IMG/VR virus record: IMGVR_UViG_2874915312_000003 | Coordinates: 1 to 14,407 of that record | Length of the DNA stretch: 14,407 bases | Direction: 5' to 3' (one strand) | Source of the DNA: a virus | Lineage: Duplodnaviria > Heunggongvirae > Uroviricota > Caudoviricetes | Part shown: positions 201 to 14,407 of the stretch, piece by piece | How positions within the stretch are numbered: the first letter of the stretch is position 1 | How the letters are laid out: each line of letters starts with the position of its first letter | Position numbers and translations under genes: made by a program | The notes under the pieces: model-generated | The model's input: only the letters and a program-made list of their open reading frames with translations | What the model was told of the DNA's origin: nothing | Databases searched by the model: none

Positions 201-764
201 TTATTCCACGATAAAATTCCTAACCGAATTCAAATCCTTCAGACTATTCAGCTCTTCCTTCAGCTCCCGCTGACGGCGATAAATCTCATCGTTGCGATCG
301 ACCTGCGCCTGCACCATTGCTGCCGCCAGTTCTTCCAGTTCCGGCATCGACAGTTTCACCTGCTGATTATCGGCATCGCTCCACGCCATATGTGTTTGTG
401 CTGTGACAGATTTTGCCAGCATGACTACCGGGGACAGGCGGCCCAGTGAGTCGGGGCCAGCATTCCAGATACGACCGTTCCATTCAAACGTGAACGGCTT
501 CGCCTCCTGTTCTGTGCGCCATGCTTCAATTCCCTGACGTCTGGCCTCTCTGGCCGCTTCCAGCATTTCTGGTGTCACAGTGAATGGGGCTATCTCACCC
601 CATTTGCCGCTTTGCAGTTCCTGCCAGATTTGCTGACCCGTCGGAGCGACATCATCAGCGGTGGCTGTGTAGGGGACTGCCTGGTCCCTGTCGTCAAAAA
701 AAACGTCACAGTCTACTGCGCCACTTTCGGTATAACGGGGATTAATGATTTTTTTAATTTCCAC
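201..764 (-). CDS. Putative tail fibre assembly/chaperone-like protein (second tfa-like gene, directly 3' of stf)
   Basis: ORF 201..824 minus overlaps the stf stop by 50 nt. An in-frame GTG at 764 preceded by GAGGAA (6-nt spacer) is the likelier start. Assignment rests mainly on position after a tail fibre gene. Confidence 0.4.
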   Translation of the reverse strand: MEIKKIINPRYTESGAVDCDVFFDDRDQAVPYTATADDVAPTGQQIWQELQSGKWGEIAPFTVTPEMLEAAREARRQGIEAWRTEQEAKPFTFEWNGRIWNAGPDSLGRLSPVVMLAKSVTAQTHMAWSDADNQQVKLSMPELEELAAAMVQAQVDRNDEIYRRQRELKEELNSLKDLNSVRNFIVE

Positions 765-774
765 GGTGCATTCC

Positions 775-2043
775 TCACGATGTGCGAATAAAAAGCCCGG
801 GCATTGCGCCAGAGACATGAGCATCCGGCACCCCGGACAGGGCGCAATATGACCCTGGTAATGAATGCTCTGAACATCCCGTAATGAAAAATTGTGGGGA
901 TGCTATATACGTTCCGGTGGGAGTACTGGGCACTGAAATCCCCACCGGTCCCAGTCGTGAGCCTCTGTATGACTGCCCCCTGACAAGTCTGATGACTTTA
1001 TCACCGTCAGCTTCTCCCTGGTACGCAGCAATAATCAGCCCGCCAATGTCAGGGTCTCCCCATCTGTTGCGGACAGAGCTCGCCACGATTCTGTAAATAA
1101 TATCTTCTGTGGTTATATTTATTTTCACCCAGCCAGTCAGTCTGGATATGGGCCAATAGCAGTAGCGGGTGTGATAAATGGGGCCGTTAATGCCGTAAAA
1201 AGTAAGGGATTTGGCTCTGTACCGCGGTTCTGTTGTCTCAGGGCGTGCATCAGTCCACCGGATGCTGAGCACCCCTTCAAACCGTGTGTCGGGTATGATG
1301 ATGCCGTAGGGGCCAGCAACGGAATATTCACCTGGCAGCGCATTCCTTACCCAGGCCAGGAAATCACTCTTAGTGTCAAAACGGATAACATCTTCAGGCA
1401 GAAAAGCACACCCAAAGCCGAATGCGCCGGGTATCGCCAGACGGCCTTTTGTCCGGTCGTAAATGTCGCTCTGTGCTTCCATCGTGGCCGCACTTTTCAG
1501 CCCCAGATTATCCCGGGACTTCTGTTGTGCCTTTTCGCCTGCTGCTGCGATTTCAGACAGATGGTTAGCCGTTTTCAGGGTGCCGGTCAGCGCAGCATCA
1601 ATGTCATTTTTGGCCTGTTCTGCTGCGCGGGCATAACCTGCGGCTGCCGCCACATCCTGCGCCGTCTGCTGTGCGTTTCCGGCTGCGGCCCCGGCGCTCT
1701 GCTGCGCCTGCGCCACCATTTCCTCAAAGCGTTTGACGACATCCGGTTTCAGGTCGCCCTCATCAGGAGCAATCAGAAAGTCATTCAGCGTGCCGGGCTT
1801 TGAGTCCTCATATACAGCAATGTCGCCAACGTTGTACTCGTTGCGCCAGTCCTGTTTCAGATACACACCATATTTTCCAGTCCGCGCATGGAAACAGTAT
1901 TCACCATCGTTTCCTGTCATCACATCAGCAACAGTGTTCATCACCACTTCCGGGGTGTTTACCCGGGATTTCAGAATAATATGGTATCCGGACATGGGGA
2001 TACCTGCGCCATCAGTCAGCGCACCTGATATCACTACAGACAT
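775..2043 (-). CDS. stf: Side tail fibre protein, lambda Stf-like N-terminal domain
   Basis: 422-aa ORF. N-terminus MSVVISGALTDGAGIP...IAVYEDSKPGTLNDFL follows the lambda Stf N-terminal pattern (MAVKISGVLKDG...ITVYEDSQPGTLNDFL) as remembered. Followed by a tfa-like gene. Confidence 0.7.
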   Translation of the reverse strand: MSVVISGALTDGAGIPMSGYHIILKSRVNTPEVVMNTVADVMTGNDGEYCFHARTGKYGVYLKQDWRNEYNVGDIAVYEDSKPGTLNDFLIAPDEGDLKPDVVKRFEEMVAQAQQSAGAAAGNAQQTAQDVAAAAGYARAAEQAKNDIDAALTGTLKTANHLSEIAAAGEKAQQKSRDNLGLKSAATMEAQSDIYDRTKGRLAIPGAFGFGCAFLPEDVIRFDTKSDFLAWVRNALPGEYSVAGPYGIIIPDTRFEGVLSIRWTDARPETTEPRYRAKSLTFYGINGPIYHTRYCYWPISRLTGWVKINITTEDIIYRIVASSVRNRWGDPDIGGLIIAAYQGEADGDKVIRLVRGQSYRGSRLGPVGISVPSTPTGTYIASPQFFITGCSEHSLPGSYCALSGVPDAHVSGAMPGLFIRTS

Positions 2044-2066
2044 TGTTTTTCTCGCGATAAATTAAA

Positions 2067-2612
2067 TCAGGAAGAACCTTCCGGAGAGGCGGGCCATTCA
2101 ATGGCGTTGTATGAGGATTTATCAGTGATGGTGCTGAAATCCATCGCCTGCAGCGATTTCGCGTAAATACGACAGGCTTTCAGCTTTTCTTTATCTTCGT
2201 CGCTGATTAACCCCAGCAGCAGGTCTTCTTCCCATTCCCCTGTCCGGGCACTGACCTGAGCCAGAAGGGCATCACGCTCATCTTCCGCTTTGAGTCTGTA
2301 GTCAAAGACAAATTCATCATTGCGGTAAAACCAGTAACCCGGCGCGGTAATCCGTCGGTTAGCGGTAATATCAGGAACTTCAATAACACTGGCATTGCGT
2401 GGCTCGATGCCTGTCACATCCTTACCGACCCACACCACGCGACCATCTCCGGTGTAAGCTATTTTTATTGTGTCGCTGGCGAAATTCTTCAGCTCTTCAT
2501 ACCAGTTTTTTCCGTCTTCTGAAAAAAGCCAGGTGACCGAATATCGTTTTGTCATCTGATATTGTTCTGCTGTTTTCGGATTACCCGCAGTAATATTTTT
2601 TAAATGCAACAT
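2067..2612 (-). CDS. tfa: Tail fibre assembly protein Tfa
   Basis: 181-aa ORF. N-terminus MLHLKNITAGNPKTAEQYQMTK...WLFSEDGKNWYEE and C-terminal ...IEWP match E. coli prophage TfaQ/TfaR/lambda Tfa as remembered. ATG lies 2 nt after the stop of the upstream fibre fragment. Confidence 0.75.
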   Translation of the reverse strand: MLHLKNITAGNPKTAEQYQMTKRYSVTWLFSEDGKNWYEELKNFASDTIKIAYTGDGRVVWVGKDVTGIEPRNASVIEVPDITANRRITAPGYWFYRNDEFVFDYRLKAEDERDALLAQVSARTGEWEEDLLLGLISDEDKEKLKACRIYAKSLQAMDFSTITDKSSYNAIEWPASPEGSS

Positions 2613-2614
2613 TG

Positions 2615-3265
2615 TTAAATACTCGCTACGTTATACCAGGTGCCATTAATCAGTTTTTGCAGTGGTCGGTAATACACACCGTCAACGTTATCCGCTGAGT
2701 TACGGCCGGGGCTGTAATACATTTCATGGCCATACCGTACATCCTGTACCCCCTCTGTTCGATATTTATAGCGGGCATCGAAGTTTCCGTAATTTAACGG
2801 AATTACCTGTCCGTTAACAGTGAACACTATGCTGTTATCCGGGTTTCTCTGGCTGAAAAAATGCCAGCCTGAATCATCGCCAAGCTCTGCAACAACAGGC
2901 CTGGATGGATTACCCCACAAATAAAACGCTGCATTTTTCGTGGAGTTGTTGGCGCTGGATAACGTGAATTTTCTGACAGTTCCGGCCTGAATATTCTTAA
3001 AAGCAATAGCCACTCCATTCTGAAAGCGGAATACACGCTGACTATTAGCATAAACATCCAGAATACCGTCTCCATTCTGTTTAAATCCGGTGTCATTATC
3101 ACCAAGAACAATTGAATTCCCCCCCAGGGCGTTCTGAACGCCGATACCCAGCGCACCATTGACCTGCGAACCACCGCCAACAGACACTTTATGCGACATG
3201 GATATTTCACCCGTCCGCAAATTAATGGTGAACGGGCGCAGGGGACCAATATCGCCATTATTCAC
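2615..3265 (-). pseudogene. Tail fibre C-terminal (receptor-binding) domain remnant; 5' portion missing
   Basis: 216-codon ORF with Gly-rich tip-like sequence (HKVSVGGGSQVNGALGIGV...), immediately followed by tfa. Begins with GTG overlapping the holin stop and has no fibre N-terminal domain. First in-frame ATG is at 3199. Confidence 0.45.
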
Positions 3266-3473
3266 CTCTCGCAGCCTTACGCTTATCTTCTCTTATTTTG
3301 AAATACAGATTCGTCAGATAAGTCAGAAGCCCCAGAAGCAGACTTCCCAGCACACCAATCGCAGCCCACTGTGATGGACTGACCTGATCCAACCACTGCA
3401 AAAACCAGTAGCCGGCACTGCCGGCGGCGGTGCCGTAGGCAATGCCCGTTGAAATTTTGTCCATGGATTTCAT
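3258..3473 (-). CDS. Holin, lambdoid prophage EssD/EssQ type (71 aa)
   Basis: MKSMDK...[32 protein letters not shown] closely matches K-12 prophage holin EssD as remembered. SD GGAGGTGA sits upstream of the ATG. Hydrophobic core with a charged C-tail. Confidence 0.7.
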
Positions 3474-3633
3474 AGCCTCACCTCCGCAAATAACGGATGG
3501 CGTAGTTTTACACTGAGAAATGAAAGGGATTTGAAAAGAAAAAAACGCAAAAGCGGGCGAAACGATATATACAGTAAGGAAAGCACTCTATCCAACAAAC
3601 CACCCACAGTTAATCGGAATAAAAGCAGAGTGC

Positions 3634-3706
3634 TTATGAATGATCGCACGCCCGAAGGTTAGTATTTCTGCACAGCAATTTTGCAAAAAAAGGCGATCAT
3701 TCATAA
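3634..3706. repeat. Perfect 14-bp inverted repeat, TTATGAATGATCGC (3634-3647) / GCGATCATTCATAA (3693-3706), 45-nt spacer
   Basis: Read directly from sequence, in the tRNA-holin intergenic region. Confidence 0.8.
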
Positions 3707-3713
3707 CTTAAAC

Positions 3714-3759
3714 GTCTTTCAGTCACTCCGGGATTTCCCATCATCGCAGACTGAAAGAC
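3714..3759. repeat. Perfect 11-bp inverted repeat, GTCTTTCAGTC (3714-3724) / GACTGAAAGAC (3749-3759), 24-nt spacer
   Basis: Read directly from sequence, 7 nt beyond the 3' end of tRNA-Gly on the transcribed strand. Confidence 0.8.
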
Positions 3760-3765
3760 TCTGAC

Positions 3766-3840
<75 letters not shown>

Positions 3841-3843
3841 ATA

Positions 3844-3919
<76 letters not shown>

Positions 3920-3921
3920 GC

Positions 3922-3998
3922 TGGCCCACCACCGAGGACTCGAACCTCGCACCGTCAACTTAGAAGGTTGATGCTCTATCCGGATGAGCTAGTGGTGG
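3922..3998 (-). tRNA. tRNA-Arg (anticodon UCU, reads AGA)
   Basis: Reverse complement CCACCACTAGCTCATCCGGATAGAGCATCAACCTTCTAAGTTGACGGTGCGAGGTTCGAGTCCTCGGTGGTGGGCCA. Perfect 7-bp acceptor stem, anticodon loop CTTCTAA, T-loop TTCGAGT. Confidence 0.75.
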
Positions 3999-3999
3999 T

Positions 4000-4076
4000 T
4001 GGTGGCCCTTGCTGGACTTGAACCAGCGACCTGGCGATTATGAGTCGCTCGCTCTGACCAACTGAGCTAAAGGGCC
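4000..4076 (-). tRNA. tRNA with CAU anticodon, ileX/ileY-like (Ile2/lysidine type more likely than Met)
   Basis: Reverse complement GGCCCTTTAGCTCAGTTGGTCAGAGCGAGCGACTCATAATCGCCAGGTCGCTGGTTCAAGTCCAGCAAGGGCCACCA. Resembles E. coli tRNA-Ile2 as remembered. Ile versus Met identity cannot be settled by eye. Confidence 0.7.
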
Positions 4077-4085
4077 GGAGGCAGA

Positions 4086-4114
4086 ATAATAACCATATGT
4101 CATCACATCTGCAA
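4086..4114 (-). promoter_or_regulatory. Candidate sigma70 promoter for the tRNA cluster (-35 TTGCAG, 17-bp spacer, -10 TATTAT)
   Basis: Minus-strand hexamers at 4114..4109 and 4091..4086. The -10 ends about 10 nt upstream of the tRNA 5' end at 4076. Confidence 0.35.
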
Positions 4115-4160
4115 ACTCATCTGACCACCAGCGCGTTTAACGCCCTGTGCCATTTTTCAG

Positions 4161-4188
4161 GCACAAAAAAACCCGCATAAAGCGGGTT
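4161..4188 (-). terminator. Rho-independent terminator (minus strand)
   Basis: Minus strand reads AACCCGC-TTTAT-GCGGGTT followed by TTTTTTTGTG. Lies about 100 nt downstream of the antirepressor stop. Confidence 0.55.
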
Positions 4189-4284
4189 CTTTCAAGTGTC
4201 CATGTCTGCTATTCGCCTCGCGATACAGCTTTGCGGAGCTTACCGGAATTGAAGCAGTTTATGTGCAAAAATGCAAGAACTTTT

Positions 4285-4794
4285 TTAAAGCTGCATCAAC
4301 CTTTCCACCAGTTTATCTCTGCGAACAACAAACCAACCATTGGCTCTCGCCAGTTCCAGCCATGACTCAAGGGAAATAACAATATCATCATCCCGTAACT
4401 GAATTGTGGAAACAGTGACACCGCCTCTCTGATAACAGAGAACTCGCGTGTCGTAACTTTTCTGGCATGAAACTGGCGTTGACGGATCCTTTTGACTGAA
4501 ATAGCAGTCTTCCAGTTTTTCGAACACATCCCACGCCTGATCGGTTTCGAGCATTTTGGCGTGGCGTGCTGCGCCTCGTTCTGTCCAGAGGATGAGGGAG
4601 CGGGCTTTGGGTGAAACTGGATTTTGTGAGTAGTTTAAAGCGACCCGCAATTCTTTAAGGTCATTACCAACAACTTTGAAAAAGTGTTTCCCTTCAACGA
4701 AGCGTACTTTGTTCTCATGATGATTCTGGCGAATACGCACCGGCTCAGTGCCGTAAAGCTGCGCCAAAAGTTCGGTGGTAATAACAGGAATCTG
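4285..4794 (-). pseudogene. ORF6N-domain phage antirepressor-like protein, 3' part (interrupted by IS600)
   Basis: Translation ...IPVITTELLAQLYGTEPVRIRQNHHENKVRFVEGKHFFKVVGNDLKELR...SPKARSLILWTERGAARHAKMLETDQAWDVFEKLEDCYF matches the ORF6N consensus as remembered. The first 47 codons of track ORF 4285..4932 are read out of IS600 and are artefactual. Confidence 0.65.
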
Positions 4795-4837
4795 TGAGGT
4801 GTACTGGCAATAGCGGACACTACCATTTGTTCTTTTT

Positions 4838-5656
4838 TTAAGCAGCCATCTGATGATATTTTTCCCTGAAGGCTGCCAGGGAGATATTCCCCAGACGAGA
4901 GTGACGACGCTGACGATTGTAGAAAATCTCAATGTATTCCCGTATTACTGAGATGGCTTCATCCCGGTTATTAAAACGATAGTGGCTCAGGCTCTCATTT
5001 TTCAGCGTTCCCCAGAAGCTTTCCATCGGAGCGTTGTCGTAACAGTTACCTTTACGCGACATTGATGTTTTCAGACCAAACTGCTCCTGTATGACCCGGT
5101 AATCGTATGCGCAGTACTGTGAACCTCGATCAGAGTGGTGGATTAGCCCGGCAGGTGGGCGCTGGCTCCTGAGCGCCATAAACAGGGCTTTACCTGTCAG
5201 CTCTTTTGTCATGCGCTCTCCCATGGCGTAGCCGACAATTTCGCACGTATAAACATCTTTGATGCCAGCGAGGTACAACCATCCCTCCTGTGTGGCAACA
5301 TACGTCAGGTCCGCCACCCAGACCTGATTTGGTGCTGTAGGAGCGAACGTCTGGTTCAGCAGATTTGGCGCAACTGGCAGATTGTGGTTCGGGTTCGTAG
5401 TCGCTCTGAACTTGCGTTTCTGCTTACAGCGTAGCCTTAGCTCCTTACAAAGACGTGCCAGTCGGTCACGACCAACGATGATGCCATTCTCTGCCAGCTC
5501 CGTCTGGAGCCGCCGGGTTCCATATGTTTCGCGAGTGCGGATATGTGCCACCTTAATCTCCAGTTTTAGCCGCTCATCACTTTGTTTTCTGTCTGAGGGT
5601 TCATGCTGTACCCAGTTGTAATAACCGCTCCTGGATACACCAAATACCTGACACAT
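4838..5656 (-). CDS. IS600 orfB (DDE transposase catalytic part, expressed as OrfAB by -1 frameshift)
   Basis: 272-aa ORF with IS3-family integrase-core motifs (WVADLTYV...HSDRGSQY...NAPMESFWGTLK). Confidence 0.8.
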   Translation of the reverse strand: MCQVFGVSRSGYYNWVQHEPSDRKQSDERLKLEIKVAHIRTRETYGTRRLQTELAENGIIVGRDRLARLCKELRLRCKQKRKFRATTNPNHNLPVAPNLLNQTFAPTAPNQVWVADLTYVATQEGWLYLAGIKDVYTCEIVGYAMGERMTKELTGKALFMALRSQRPPAGLIHHSDRGSQYCAYDYRVIQEQFGLKTSMSRKGNCYDNAPMESFWGTLKNESLSHYRFNNRDEAISVIREYIEIFYNRQRRHSRLGNISLAAFREKYHQMAA

Positions 5657-5691
5657 CGCTTCAATGGGAAATTGTTGTCGCCATTGTTCGA

Positions 5692-5994
5692 TTAACGCGT
5701 ATTTTTCAGCGACTCCTGTGCAAAATACGCTGTTGCTTTTTTTAATATATCTCGCTCAAGGCGAGCTTCATTTAACGCCTTACGCAGTTGCAGAATTTCA
5801 GATTCCAGTTCAGCCACCGTGCGGGAACCAGGAGTACCGAGCCCTTTTCTGGCGGCGGTAACCCATTGTCCTAAAGTGCCTTCAGGAAGAGATAATCGGG
5901 AAGCGCCTTCACTGATCGAAAGTTGATTTTCAAGAACCGTTCTGACAGCTTCGGCTTTGAACTCTTTAGAGTAACGTTGGGTTTTTCTGCTCAT
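5692..5994 (-). CDS. IS600 orfA (helix-turn-helix / leucine-zipper transposase N-terminal part)
   Basis: 100-aa ORF starting 64 nt from the IS end, with a coiled-coil ELESEILQLRKALNEARLERDILKKA typical of IS3-family OrfA. Confidence 0.8.
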   Translation of the reverse strand: MSRKTQRYSKEFKAEAVRTVLENQLSISEGASRLSLPEGTLGQWVTAARKGLGTPGSRTVAELESEILQLRKALNEARLERDILKKATAYFAQESLKNTR

Positions 5995-6058
5995 TATTAG
6001 CTCCTTCTGATGCCATTCTATTTCAGGAAGGAGTGTCCGTTAAACTCAGGCTACCTCA

Positions 6059-6272: not shown

Positions 6273-6294
6273 AAAAAAGACGCGGGCGCGTCTC
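6273..6294 (-). terminator. Candidate tR'-like intrinsic terminator
   Basis: Minus strand reads GACGC-GCCC-GCGTC followed by TTTTTT, about 55-75 nt downstream of the candidate late promoter. Confidence 0.4.
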
Positions 6295-6355
6295 ATATCG
6301 CTCCGTAAACATCCGGGACGCCAATCCCGACGCCAGATTTTGCTGGCGCGTGAGG

Positions 6356-6385
6356 AATATAGCCCCGGATAACAGATTGAGTCAA
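6356..6385 (-). promoter_or_regulatory. Candidate late promoter pR' (-35 TTGACT, 18-bp spacer, -10 TATATT)
   Basis: The -35 hexamer at 6385..6380 overlaps the Q stop codon (TGA at 6384..6382). The -10 is at 6361..6356. Lambdoid pR' sits immediately after Q. Confidence 0.5.
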
Positions 6386-6936
6386 CAAACGGTTTTTAGA
6401 TCCCCGGAAGAGAATGCATCACGCATCGGTAGATAGAGCATATATTCAGCAAGATTTAGCCATACATCTACCCGACTGCAGCACGTCCGGAAACACCACT
6501 CAGGGTGTGCGTCATTCAGCAATTCAGCCATTTTACGCTTAGTCATCCCCCGCCCTTCATACCGTTGCCGGAGGACACTAATCAATCCAGGATGCTCTGC
6601 CAGCACCTCACTTATGACTCTATCAATACATAACGCCTCTGCATCAGTACAATGCGCCAGCCAGGTCTTTTGCTTGCCATTGATCATCTCTCGCAAAAAC
6701 GCTTCCAGCTCAGGTTTCTCTATTCCCGCTTTTTTCATCCTGCGCAGGGCTTCATTGACGGCTGTTTTCGTCAATTTTTTGGATGCCAGCAACTGGTTAA
6801 ACATATTTCCCGCCTTACCGCCGCCAATATACGACCAGCGCCCCCACATGCGCAGTTTTCCCTGAATCCAGACACTTTCCAGCGTGGTGAGACGAAGGTG
6901 TTCCCCGCTTTTGCCTGTATTTGTTGGGTAAATCAT
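6382..6936 (-). CDS. Late-gene antitermination protein Q (Phage_antitermQ-like)
   Basis: Start taken at the internal ATG 6936 (MIYPTNTGKSGEH...), which has SD AAGGAAGG and overlaps the upstream stop as ATGA. Motif LRMWGRWSYIGGG resembles the W-G-x-W segment of Q21/QuuD-type proteins as remembered. Candidate pR'/tR' lie immediately downstream. Confidence 0.6.
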   Translation of the reverse strand: MIYPTNTGKSGEHLRLTTLESVWIQGKLRMWGRWSYIGGGKAGNMFNQLLASKKLTKTAVNEALRRMKKAGIEKPELEAFLREMINGKQKTWLAHCTDAEALCIDRVISEVLAEHPGLISVLRQRYEGRGMTKRKMAELLNDAHPEWCFRTCCSRVDVWLNLAEYMLYLPMRDAFSSGDLKTVC

Positions 6937-7223
6937 AAATAACCTTCCTTTCTCCAGATTTCTTGTGTGCGAAAAACACCTTCTGCATGCATCAGGCGTA
7001 ATTCTTCTTTGGTGTAATCGCTGGTTTTTACCCGCCCGTCGATTAAATCGTGGCATGAGCTACAGGCAATCGCTGCCTGCATATCGTGTGGTTTTGTCGC
7101 TGTTCCGCACGTCCCCGCCAGCCTGTAATGCGCCAGCACAGAAGTTTCGGGATTGTGATTGCAGTAGCCAGGGATTCTGACGGTGCACATCTGCCCCCGC
7201 GCCGCTTTACGTAAATCCACCAT
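6933..7223 (-). CDS. Cys-rich nin-region protein (YbcO/DUF1364-like)
   Basis: 96-aa ORF with spaced Cys/His residues (CTVRIPGYCNH...CGTATKPHD...CSSCHD). Start overlaps the upstream stop (TAATG). Family name is from memory. Confidence 0.45.
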   Translation of the reverse strand: MVDLRKAARGQMCTVRIPGYCNHNPETSVLAHYRLAGTCGTATKPHDMQAAIACSSCHDLIDGRVKTSDYTKEELRLMHAEGVFRTQEIWRKEGYL

Positions 7224-7822
7224 TACGCAAACTCCAGTAACTGCGCGGCCACATTTTCGACTTCCTCCGGAGAGGAAAATTTACGGAACAGGATCCAGTT
7301 CCACAGCACATTCAGTACAGATTTATAAACCTGCTGAAACTCGGTTTCGTCCATGTTCGCAAATGCGATAGATTTTGCCCTGCGCCCACGACTACCATCA
7401 GGATAAATATGCTCGGTGTAAAATCCGGCCTGAATGGTTACCCACTCGCGGAAAGCGTCAAACGACTTTAGCAATGCCGTATCCCGGGTTCTGCATGTCG
7501 CAACTGTATTAAGGTATTGCTCTGCGGCATCACTCAGGGCTGGAGTGTGTTCCCGACCTACTGATTCGCACAGGTAATCAACGAAGCCTGATACCAGTTT
7601 TCGTTCGCGAGGCGTGATCGCCCCACCGACCGGAGTCCAGTAATCAAATCCCAGTTGCAGGAGTTTGAAAAAACGCTTGTGGAATGCGTAGTTACGCACA
7701 CGCTTAAAGTCTGCGTGTATCCACTCACCTATTTTGATTTGATGCAAAAAATCGCAACTCTCCGGCGTCGCCGGGAGAAGTAATCCGGAAGAGGTTTGTT
7801 TGACCAGTTGTATATGCGCCAT
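7223..7822 (-). CDS. Lambdoid nin-region protein (DUF1367-like), unknown function
   Basis: 199-aa ORF, translationally coupled to the next gene, located between the Rem-like gene and Q. Confidence 0.45.
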   Translation of the reverse strand: MAHIQLVKQTSSGLLLPATPESCDFLHQIKIGEWIHADFKRVRNYAFHKRFFKLLQLGFDYWTPVGGAITPRERKLVSGFVDYLCESVGREHTPALSDAAEQYLNTVATCRTRDTALLKSFDAFREWVTIQAGFYTEHIYPDGSRGRRAKSIAFANMDETEFQQVYKSVLNVLWNWILFRKFSSPEEVENVAAQLLEFA

Positions 7823-7955
7823 CGTAGTTCTCCGCTGGCGCAGTAGAATGGGTGTTCAGCCCGTTATGTAGTATACCAGAATTAATGCCAATACTAACAG
7901 GGTAATGCTGCCAACTTACTGATTTAGTGTATGATGGTGATTTTAAGGTGCTTGC

Positions 7956-8231
7956 GTGGCTTCCATTTCCATCAGATGTCCTTCCTGCTCCGCTACTGAA
8001 GGCGTGGTGCGTAACGGCAAAAGCACTGCCGGGCATCAGCGCTATCTCTGCTCTCATTGCCGTAAAACATGGCAACTACAGTTCACTTACACCGCCTCTC
8101 AGCCCGGTACGCACCAGAAAATCATTGATATGGCCATGAATGGCGTCGGATGTCGCGCCAGTGCACGCATTATGGGCGTTGGCCTCAACACGGTTTTACG
8201 TCACTTAAAAAACTCAGGCCGCAGTCGGTAA
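7956..8231 (+). CDS. insA: IS1 InsA
   Basis: [40 protein letters not shown]..., 91 aa. Confidence 0.9.
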
Positions 8232-8653
8232 CCTCGCGCATACAACCGGGCAGTGATGTGATTGTCTGCGCTGAAATGGACGAACATTGGGGCTACGTCG
8301 GTGCTAAATCACGTCAGCGCTGGCTGTTTTACGCGTATGACAGGATACGGAGGACGGTTGTGGCGCACGTCTTCGGTGAACGCACTCTGGCCACACTGGA
8401 GCGTCTTCTGAGCCTGCTGTCGGCCTTTGAGGTCGTGGTATGGATGACGGATGGCTGGCCGCTGTATGAATCACGCCTGAAGGGAAAGCTGCACGTTATC
8501 AGCAAGCGTTACACTCAGCGCATTGAGCGACATAATCTGAATCTGAGACAACATCTGGCAAGGCTGGGACGGAAGTCACTGTCGTTCTCAAAATCGGTGG
8601 AGCTGCATGACAAGGTCATCGGGCATTATCTGAACATAAAACACTATCAGTAA
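8150..8653 (+). CDS. insB: IS1 insB reading frame (expressed as InsAB' fusion by -1 frameshift at the A6C motif near 8207)
   Basis: 167-codon ORF overlapping the insA 3' end. TTAAAAAACTC slippery motif present. Confidence 0.85.
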
Positions 8654-8752
8654 GTTGGAGTCATTACCTACTAACAGGATGTTCTGACTCGCAATTCGGT
8701 AATGCTGCCAACTTACTGATTTAGTGTATGATGGTGATTTTAAGGTGCTTGC

Positions 8753-9028
8753 GTGGCTTCCATTTCCATCAGATGTCCTTCCTGCTCCGCTACTGAAGGC
8801 GTGGTGCGTAACGGCAAAAGCACTGCCGGACATCAGCGCTATCTCTGCTCTCATTGCCGTAAAACATGGCAACTACAGTTCACTTACACCGCCTCTCAGC
8901 CCGGTACGCACCAGAAAATCATTGATATGGCCATGAATGGCGTCGGATGTCGCGCCAGTGCACGCATTATGGGCGTTGGCCTCAACAGGGTTTTACGTCA
9001 CTTAAAAAACTCAGGCCGCAGTCGGTAA
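8753..9028 (+). CDS. insA: IS1 InsA (copy 2; T->R substitution relative to copies 1 and 3)
   Basis: GLNRVLRHL versus GLNTVLRHL in the other copies. Confidence 0.9.
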
Positions 9029-9450
9029 CCTCGCGCATACAACCGGGCAGTGATGTGATTGTCTGCGCTGAAATGGACGAACATTGGGGCTACGTCGGTG
9101 CTAAATCACGTCAGCGCTGGCTGTTTTACGCGTATGACAGGATACGGAGGACGGTTGTGGCGCACGTCTTCGGTGAACGCACTCTGGCCACACTGGAGCG
9201 TCTTCTGAGCCTGCTGTCGGCCTTTGAGGTCGTGGTATGGATGACGGATGGCTGTCCGCTGTATGAATCACGCCTGAAGGGAAAGCTGCACGTTATCAGC
9301 AAGCGTTACACTCAGCGCATTGAGCGACATAATCTGAATCTGAGACAACATCTGGCAAGGCTGGGACGGAAGTCACTGTCGTTCTCAAAATCGGTGGAGC
9401 TGCATGACAAGGTCATCGGGCATTATCTGAACATAAAACACTATCAGTAA
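8947..9450 (+). CDS. insB: IS1 insB frame (copy 2; W->C substitution, DGCPLYES versus DGWPLYES)
   Basis: Direct comparison of the three copies within the window. Confidence 0.85.
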
Positions 9451-9698
9451 GTTGGAGTCATTACCCGCAATTCATCCAGCAGTTTATCATTTCCCATAAT
9501 GTCACTTACCCTCATCGGTAAAAAAATTGCCTTTCGACCATTACGATACATTATTGATTTTGGGGTTTCAGGGAAGTAATCCATTTCGACTATAACTGAC
9601 AGGTCATCACGACGTATGACTGCGTATTTGCTACTAAATAGTTTCTTTATTTTTTCCACGATGCCTCCAGGTTTATAAGTACAAACGGTTATATCCAC
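9444..9698 (-). CDS. Rem-like small prophage protein; last 5 native codons replaced by 6 IS1-derived codons
   Basis: GTG start at 9698. Removing both IS1 copies and one copy of each duplication restores an 83-codon ORF ending ...LLDELRVRTSC, with its stop inside the copy-1 target duplication. Position (upstream of Q and nin proteins, downstream of hokD) mirrors rem in K-12 Qin. Identity to Rem is from memory. Confidence 0.5.
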
Positions 9699-11933: not shown

Positions 11934-12189
11934 ATCAGCTTTCCTTATACGGATTAATTTTATTGTGCAGTGTGTTGAATGACGCCCATACCACGTCGTT
12001 ATACAATTCAATAACTGGCTCAATTATTTTTCCGATTATCCAGACAAAAATTAGCGGGGATATCGGTGTCATCAACACGATAAACAGAATGAGAAACAGG
12101 AATTCTGTTGTTCTACTCTTTCGCGGATATTTTTGGTAATGCTGCCAACTTACTGATTTAGTGTATGATGGTGATTTTAAGGTGCTTGC

Positions 12190-12465
12190 GTGGCTTCCAT
12201 TTCCATCAGATGTCCTTCCTGCTCCGCTACTGAAGGCGTGGTGCGTAACGGCAAAAGCACTGCCGGACATCAGCGCTATCTCTGCTCTCATTGCCGTAAA
12301 ACATGGCAACTACAGTTCACTTACACCGCCTCTCAGCCCGGTACGCACCAGAAAATCATTGATATGGCCATGAATGGCGTCGGATGTCGCGCCAGTGCAC
12401 GCATTATGGGCGTTGGCCTCAACACGGTTTTACGTCACTTAAAAAACTCAGGCCGCAGTCGGTAA
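12190..12465 (+). CDS. insA: IS1 InsA (copy 3)
   Basis: Protein identical to copy 1 InsA. Confidence 0.9.
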
Positions 12466-12887
12466 CCTCGCGCATACAACCGGGCAGTGATGTGATTGTC
12501 TGCGCTGAAATGGACGAACATTGGGGCTACGTCGGTGCTAAATCACGTCAGCGCTGGCTGTTTTACGCGTATGACAGGATACGGAGGACGGTTGTGGCGC
12601 ACGTCTTCGGTGAACGCACTCTGGCCACACTGGAGCGTCTTCTGAGCCTGCTGTCGGCCTTTGAGGTCGTGGTATGGATGACGGATGGCTGGCCGCTGTA
12701 TGAATCACGCCTGAAGGGAAAGCTGCACGTTATCAGCAAGCGTTACACTCAGCGCATTGAGCGACATAATCTGAATCTGAGACAACATCTGGCAAGGCTG
12801 GGACGGAAGTCACTGTCGTTCTCAAAATCGGTGGAGCTGCATGACAAGGTCATCGGGCATTATCTGAACATAAAACACTATCAGTAA
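12384..12887 (+). CDS. insB: IS1 insB frame (copy 3)
   Basis: Protein identical to copy 1. Confidence 0.85.
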
Positions 12888-13022
12888 GTTGGAGTCATTA
12901 CCGATATTTTTTTCTAAATAATGTAACCATTCATTACCGCCCTTTCGGGCGGTCTCCTGATGATTTGAGGGTGCAGAAATCCCTCCGGTTAGAGATTAAA
13001 TTTTTAACAGTGCTAAATTTAA

Positions 13023-13248: not shown

Positions 13249-13256
13249 TGAAGTGG

Positions 13257-14407
<1,151 letters not shown>

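Follow-up and report, generated by a model that had tools for sequence, protein, structure and literature searches.

How does a phage holin gene come to lie directly against the C-terminal part of a tail-fibre gene? The question is raised by a stretch of 14,407 nucleotides (the window) that, by sequence comparison, matches the Shigella flexneri sequence CP026803.1 with 100% identity across 13,265 nt. Two open reading frames on the minus strand are involved.

3473–3258, minus strand: holin gene, 71 codons, ATG at 3473–3471 and TAA at 3260–3258, intact in the ORF list and in the sequence
3265–2615, minus strand: tail-fibre remnant ORF, 216 codons, starting with GTG at 3265–3263

The two ORFs overlap by 8 nt and nothing lies in between. 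An earlier note on this DNA had called the arrangement a holin fused to a fibre remnant, the holin stop (3260–3258) overlapping the start of the fragment. The ORF coordinates agree with this overlap and the genes are indeed juxtaposed, but the frames differ, so the genes merely abut and no fusion protein is possible. The joint is probably a deletion scar in an S. flexneri cryptic prophage, left by one illegitimate recombination at the tetranucleotide AATG.

An intact holin gene

The 71-codon gene is predicted from its sequence to encode an intact class II holin of the phage 21 S type. In Pfam it matches the phage P21 holin S family (PF04971) with E = 1.2e-34 and 118.5 bits against a cut-off of 26, over profile positions 1–63 of 64, and it matches holin PHROGs as well. 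A Shine–Dalgarno sequence (GGAGGTGAGG) is present upstream of the ATG. The N-terminus, MKSMDK, carries the dual-start motif with both Met1 and Met4 in place; in phage 21 S, starts at Met1 and Met4 give the antiholin and holin forms. The closest holin is that of Escherichia coli FDAARGOS_943 (99.7% identical), where the structural genes are of the type seen in the CFSAN029787 prophage described below, and the exact holin protein is found on 248 contigs. In the comparator prophages an RrrD lysozyme gene follows the holin directly and starts at the sequence TAATG. The partner endolysin is not found 3′ of the window holin, where only the endolysin ATG is left.

A truncated tail-fibre gene

The 216-codon ORF is the C-terminal ∼60% of a 402-amino-acid tail fibre and not a complete protein. 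From residue 4 onwards (NGDIGPLRP...) it aligns with residues ∼164–402 of the 402-residue comparator fibre. Against the PHROGs it matches phrog_454 (E = 8e-70) and phrog_6859 (E = 1e-66), the latter only from profile position 163 of 346, and the full-length comparator fibre covers positions 1–346 of the same profile; Pfam finds no domain in the 216-residue product. At the nucleotide level the segment 2699–3259 is 94.7% identical to the RMDEC465 locus (L002) and 89.3–89.6% identical to two further loci (L004 and L005), the unambiguously fibre-derived bases of the ORF being only those at or below 3255. Genes for baseplate J/gp47 and YmfQ lie upstream of the comparator fibres, the holin lies upstream of the window remnant, and the missing N-terminal part of the fibre is presumably baseplate-proximal. 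The alignment and the profile match from position 163 bear out the identification of this ORF as a fibre remnant in the earlier note and speak against a complete, unrelated protein.

The last point deserves some attention, as the FDAARGOS_944 prophage has a 209-residue hypothetical gene between its holin and lysozyme genes, and the 216-codon ORF might likewise be a complete, unrelated accessory gene that normally follows the holin. We regard this as extremely improbable. Compared by eye, the 209-residue protein does not resemble the 216-residue ORF, and it was dropped as a candidate relative; DNA homology to the FDAARGOS_944 locus ends at 3271, and the alignment of the ORF to the C-terminal 60% of the 402-residue fibre, which follows the baseplate genes, runs residue for residue.

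The remnant carries a second lesion and is followed by the other genes of a fibre module.

2699–2709, minus strand: site of a 75 bp in-frame deletion (25 codons) in the remnant, from alignment against three comparators
2067–2612, minus strand: tail fibre assembly (chaperone) gene, 181 codons, full length and of comparator-like length, PF02413 (E = 8e-27)
775–2043, minus strand: second fibre gene, 422 codons, full length, prophage tail-fibre N-terminal domain PF08400 (E = 2.5e-70)
201–824, minus strand: DUF4376 gene, 207 codons, PF14301, last in the fibre module

All three comparators keep the 75 bp that are absent from the remnant. The deletion is bounded by imperfect direct repeats CCGGCnGTAAC, one copy of which is retained at 2699–2709, and the deleted form was found in no complete E. 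coli genome. This extra deletion suggests that the fibre fragment is a decaying pseudogene. The three genes that follow (chaperone, tail_N fibre and DUF4376) are all full length, and the second fibre gene is 98.4% identical to its CFSAN029787 counterpart. Reading the sequence of the remnant, an internal ATG at 3199–3197 lies in the fibre frame and could give a 194-residue product; the only other start is the GTG at 3265.

The junction at base level

Alignment to intact prophages places the crossover at 3259–3256, inside the interval near 3200–3265 where it had been predicted in the earlier note.

3259–3256, minus strand: deletion junction, 4 bp microhomology AATG common to both parents
2827–3258, minus strand: out-of-frame ORF, 143 codons, opening at the retained endolysin ATG, no Pfam match

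Three comparator sequences for the holin side and three for the fibre side (two of these from the single FDAARGOS_944 locus) supplied the parental sequences. On the holin–endolysin side, three E. coli prophages whose holin is nearly identical have GGTGAATAATG followed by TCGCC (at greater length, GAGAGGTGAATAATG followed by TCGCCATCATTACGC), and the ATG in the parental TAATG opens the lysozyme gene (PF00959, E = 9.5e-46). On the fibre side, full-length fibre genes have GGGGAAAATG followed by GCGAT (at greater length, GGTCAGGGGGAAAATG followed by GCGATATTGGTCCC). Across the joint the window reads GGTGAATAATGGCGAT, or GAGAGGTGAATAATGGCGATATTGGTCCC when more of both flanks is included. Imperfect similarity extends to about 10 of 13 bases ending in AATG; by our own calculation, a microhomology of at least 4 bp would be met in ∼1–2% of random joins by chance.

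The break points are inside genes, the endolysin start codon being joined to approximately codon 164 of the fibre with short homology only. The ATG of the lost endolysin (3258–3256) is kept at the joint, and the 143-codon ORF that opens there is a by-product of the deletion in which fibre DNA is read in the wrong frame. An origin of the deletion through an insertion sequence was considered and rejected because no IS sequence is present at or beside the joint.

Six independent S. flexneri assemblies share the identical holin–fibre junction, which rules out that it was created during assembly. An exact-protein look-up recovers the exact 216-residue product from one complete genome, four drafts and one Logan read-set assembly; nothing favours an assembly artefact, to which we attach practically no credence. 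Outside this set, a search of 5,426 complete E. coli genomes with a 701 nt probe spanning the junction found none that covers it, and the junction 25-mer GAGAGGTGAATAATGGCGATATTGG gave no matches in JGI metagenomes. The same 25-mer had no matches among species-representative genomes either, a result that tells little since this set is believed to fold Shigella into E. coli.

Intact relatives and the deleted segment

The prophage of CFSAN029787 occupies the Rac site (ttcA ... uspF). Its order is intR, xisR, early genes, DUF1367, DUF1364, DUF1133, four tRNAs and a class II holin, followed by RrrD lysozyme, lysis protein, small and large terminase, portal, head, sheath and baseplate, and ending with fibre, chaperone, tail_N fibre, DUF4376 and sitDCBA. 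The window is 98.4% identical to it over 1–2709 and 93–94% identical over 3253–4286 and 6491–7821, and ∼21.6 kb of CFSAN029787 lie between the two junction points. The phiP27-like prophage of FDAARGOS_944, situated beside a tRNA-Ser gene and mtfA, has a collinear order with a Mu-like tail, ipaH cargo and a fibre of the same type as the remnant. Here the junction points are 22.0 kb apart including two ISEc60 copies, leaving ∼19.4 kb net. The Shiga-toxin 2e phage phiP27 has the matching order from attL to attR; its holin is of another type, and its identity of ∼84% to the window is confined to the fibre side.

Both flanks of the joint are collinear with intact E. coli prophages, the intervening genes are missing from the window and the best-matching relative differs by segment. 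Between the junction points these two prophages and phiP27 have ∼19–22 kb, encoding endolysin, an Rz-type lysis protein or spanin, terminase, portal, head, sheath, tube and baseplate. This agrees with the proposal in the earlier note that endolysin, spanin, terminase, head and tail genes are absent from between holin and fibre, since the intact collinear prophages hold them at this place; the gene and Pfam annotation of L006, the CP026803.1 locus identical to the window, shows no lysis or morphogenesis genes elsewhere in the window. The size and content of the deleted DNA are those read from the relatives.

The holin gene and the remnant lie on one strand and in phage order, and a single deletion of ∼19–22 kb therefore accounts for the arrangement; we infer that it was one event inside one prophage. 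The parent is a temperate phage with lambdoid regulation and a contractile tail, of the phiP27 or Rac-site type, and not a lambda-type siphovirus. Its early half would have run from a Q-like gene through tRNAs, class II holin, endolysin and spanin to terminase, and its late half from head, tail and baseplate through fibre, chaperone, second fibre and DUF4376 to the cargo. The crossover at AATG would have brought the endolysin start codon up against codon ∼164 in the first fibre gene and taken out ∼19–22 kb, which held the genes for endolysin, spanin, terminase, head, tail and baseplate together with ∼163 codons from the start of the fibre gene. Short-homology illegitimate recombination is the likely route by which this happened. 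With host lysis, particle formation and DNA packaging lost, the element would be fixed in the chromosome along with its cargo (sitABCD and the tRNAs), which stays.

A loss in the same part of the genome is seen in E. coli VL7S7 (L016, 26600–30650), where holin, lysozyme and lysis protein are kept and terminase, head and most tail genes are lost. The VL7S7 gap carries IS600 and IS911, and ipaHa is found at the fibre end. This is an independent, IS-associated decay of the matching block, and as a separate loss it makes the removal of this block look recurrent in related prophages.

One prophage or two

No single comparator is the best match throughout. For segment 1–2709 the nearest relative is the sit prophage of CFSAN029787 (98.4%), and the fibre body at 2710–3255 is of the ipaH/phiP27-like type, with 94.7% identity to RMDEC465 and ∼46% amino-acid identity to the CFSAN029787 fibre. 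Since the best relative changes by segment, either the exact parent was a mosaic absent from our comparators or two elements took part. Such a patchwork of best relatives is to be expected with mosaic fibre genes.

The surroundings of the window bear on this choice. In the identical locus L006, sitDCBA begins ∼200 nt past window position 1, with sitD following the DUF4376 gene, and the window is the phage-derived part of the S. flexneri pathogenicity island PAI sit, which carries the sitABCD iron/manganese transporter. A review summarising Fisher et al., 2009 (PMC7545054) describes PAI sit as an unstable island in which insertion sequences, deletions and rearrangements are numerous. Our literature search returned nothing specific on holin/fibre deletions in Shigella cryptic prophages. 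About 4 kb past window position 1 (L006 17076–17118, in CP026803.1) a 43 nt core joins the sitA side to intR–xisR, and this core is common to the uspF/sitA-side and intR/ttcA-side flanks of the CFSAN029787 prophage. The attP-like joint points to a tandem pair of Rac-site prophage remnants in S. flexneri. It survives downstream of the window element, and the deletion thus did not reach the neighbouring tandem element.

An S. flexneri draft (AFGX01000042.1, L008) that matches window 231–5053 has the identical holin–fibre junction and IS600 insertion, followed after DUF4376 by an ipaH (NEL-domain) gene in place of sitD. The differences from the window are concentrated at 237–408 (33 of 38), from which we conclude that the distal arms were exchanged by recombination in the 3′ end of DUF4376.

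Some of these observations could be taken to mean that the joint arose by recombination between two resident prophages, for example a sit Rac-site prophage and an ipaH phiP27-like one, or tandem lysogens. The fibre body is ipaH/phiP27-like and the distal arm and sit genes match the Rac-site prophage; tandem prophage remnants with the 43 nt att core are present at the locus; and the draft, in which ipaH and not sit lies beyond the identical junction, shows that remnants exchange arms. We nevertheless consider such an event unlikely. Fibre genes are mosaic within single elements, VL7S7 for example combining a DUF2612-type baseplate with the fibre type of the remnant, and the holin type and fibre type of the window co-occur on single prophages. 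A join between prophages lying far apart would remove or invert large parts of the chromosome, a two-copy deletion that spares the downstream attP-like joint would need a third copy, and the arm swap in the draft lies at window 231–410, distant from the junction. A single deletion in one mosaic prophage remains our preferred explanation.

The region upstream of the holin

The part of the window that precedes the holin contains regulatory features, tRNA genes and several insertion sequences.

3766–4076, minus strand: four prophage tRNA genes, Gly-TCC, Thr-TGT, Arg-TCT and one with a CAT anticodon, from ARAGORN
4795–6058, minus strand: IS600, 1264 bp with a 3 bp target duplication, from BLAST break points against L001, transposase ORFs and the annotation of IS600 in comparators
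6936–6382, minus strand: Q-like antiterminator gene, DUF1133, matching PF06576 and faintly PF06530
6385–6356, minus strand: promoter-like site, TTGACT, 18 nt spacer, TATATT, overlapping the Q-like stop, from a consensus pattern match
6294–6277, minus strand: terminator-like hairpin, ∼60 nt after the promoter-like site
7901–8668, 8698–9465 and 12135–12902: three IS1 copies of 768 bp each, the first two in tandem and 29 nt apart
13249–14375: IS3-family element, 95% identical to a copy annotated as ISEc52 in FDAARGOS_944, opposite in orientation to the surrounding early genes

The layout at 6277–6385 is that expected of a lambdoid late promoter and first terminator, which presumably once drove the holin. 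IS600 has inserted ∼50 nt into an ORF6N gene, which places it downstream of the Q-like gene and the late-promoter-like site there and ahead of the holin. Because IS600 separates the presumed late promoter from the holin, the orphan holin is probably unexpressed or only rarely expressed. An ORF at 4285–4932 reads out of the end of IS600 and is a chimera.

The tRNA cluster lies upstream of the holin, and the intact comparators have it in the matching position. Its composition varies among related prophages, with Gly or Val and Arg or Lys at the respective positions. The tRNA with the CAT anticodon is assigned to Met by ARAGORN and to Ile in the RefSeq annotation.

Is the present arrangement kept by selection? 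The lone holin might act as a membrane-depolarising toxin, or the fibre C-terminus, expressed together with its chaperone, might bind receptors as a soluble protein. In favour of this, the holin has an unbroken ORF with both Met1 and Met4, the three genes 3′ of the remnant are full length and the internal ATG at 3199–3197 could yield the 194-residue product. ORFs are, however, expected to stay intact for a while after a recent deletion, the remnant has the additional 75 bp deletion that is absent from every complete E. coli genome, IS600 cuts the holin off from its presumed late promoter, and the retained endolysin start opens the wrong frame. Maintenance by selection therefore seems to us very improbable. 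There is similarly little to expect from the more specific proposals that the orphan holin is kept as a putative depolarising toxin, for instance in abortive infection or stress-induced growth arrest, or that the endolysin start makes a putative new 143-residue protein: the extra deletion in the remnant and the upstream IS600 argue for plain decay instead. The holin–fibre pair is not a working unit but a scar of ordinary prophage decay, of a known kind.

Comparison with known prophages

A close parallel is the cryptic prophage Qin of E. coli K-12, to which the earlier note had likened this locus as showing an analogous but smaller deletion. Qin is also a lambdoid remnant from which head and tail genes are gone and in which a truncated side-tail-fibre gene abuts a late gene, nohA overlapping stfQ, which is followed by tfaQ. 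The analogy holds, the Qin scar being one that spares lysis genes and breaks further downstream: Qin keeps essQ, ydfR, rrrQ and rzpQ/rzoQ, and its break is in the small-terminase gene, whereas the break in the window is at the endolysin start codon and the holin is the sole lysis survivor. Qin furthermore has the pin invertase beside tfaQ, and none was seen in the window.

The CFSAN029787 prophage shares with the window the insertion-site family, the order of early genes, Q-like gene, tRNAs, holin and fibre module, and the sit cargo, with 93–98% identity on both sides of the joint. It differs in being complete between holin and fibre (∼21.6 kb) and in having another fibre-body type (46% amino-acid identity). 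Phage phiP27 and the ipaH prophages of FDAARGOS_944 and RMDEC465 resemble the window element in their lambdoid regulation, Mu-like contractile tail and four-gene fibre module at the attR end, and the ipaH prophages have, as a 402-residue fibre, the full-length form of the window remnant. Unlike the window, phiP27 carries stx2e and a holin pair of another kind, the cargo of the E. coli relatives is ipaH and not sit, and the morphogenesis genes are kept in all of these elements.

Compared with the earlier note, the analysis adds that the endolysin ATG is retained at the joint, that the remnant has a second deletion of 75 bp, that the parent was contractile-tailed and that no protein fusion exists.

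Implications

For annotation, the 216-residue product, which is labelled 'tail protein' in the GenBank records of S. flexneri K-227 and K-272, should be changed to a truncated pseudogene, and the element as a whole is to be scored as defective, being devoid of endolysin, spanin, terminase, head and tail genes. Among the collections searched the junction sequence is specific to S. flexneri and may serve as a lineage marker. Beyond annotation the finding is of little importance, the locus reflecting routine decay of the known unstable sit island. It does provide an example, at the level of single bases, of how one microhomology-mediated deletion would fix a cargo prophage in its host, with the capacity for killing and packaging lost and the cargo left in place.
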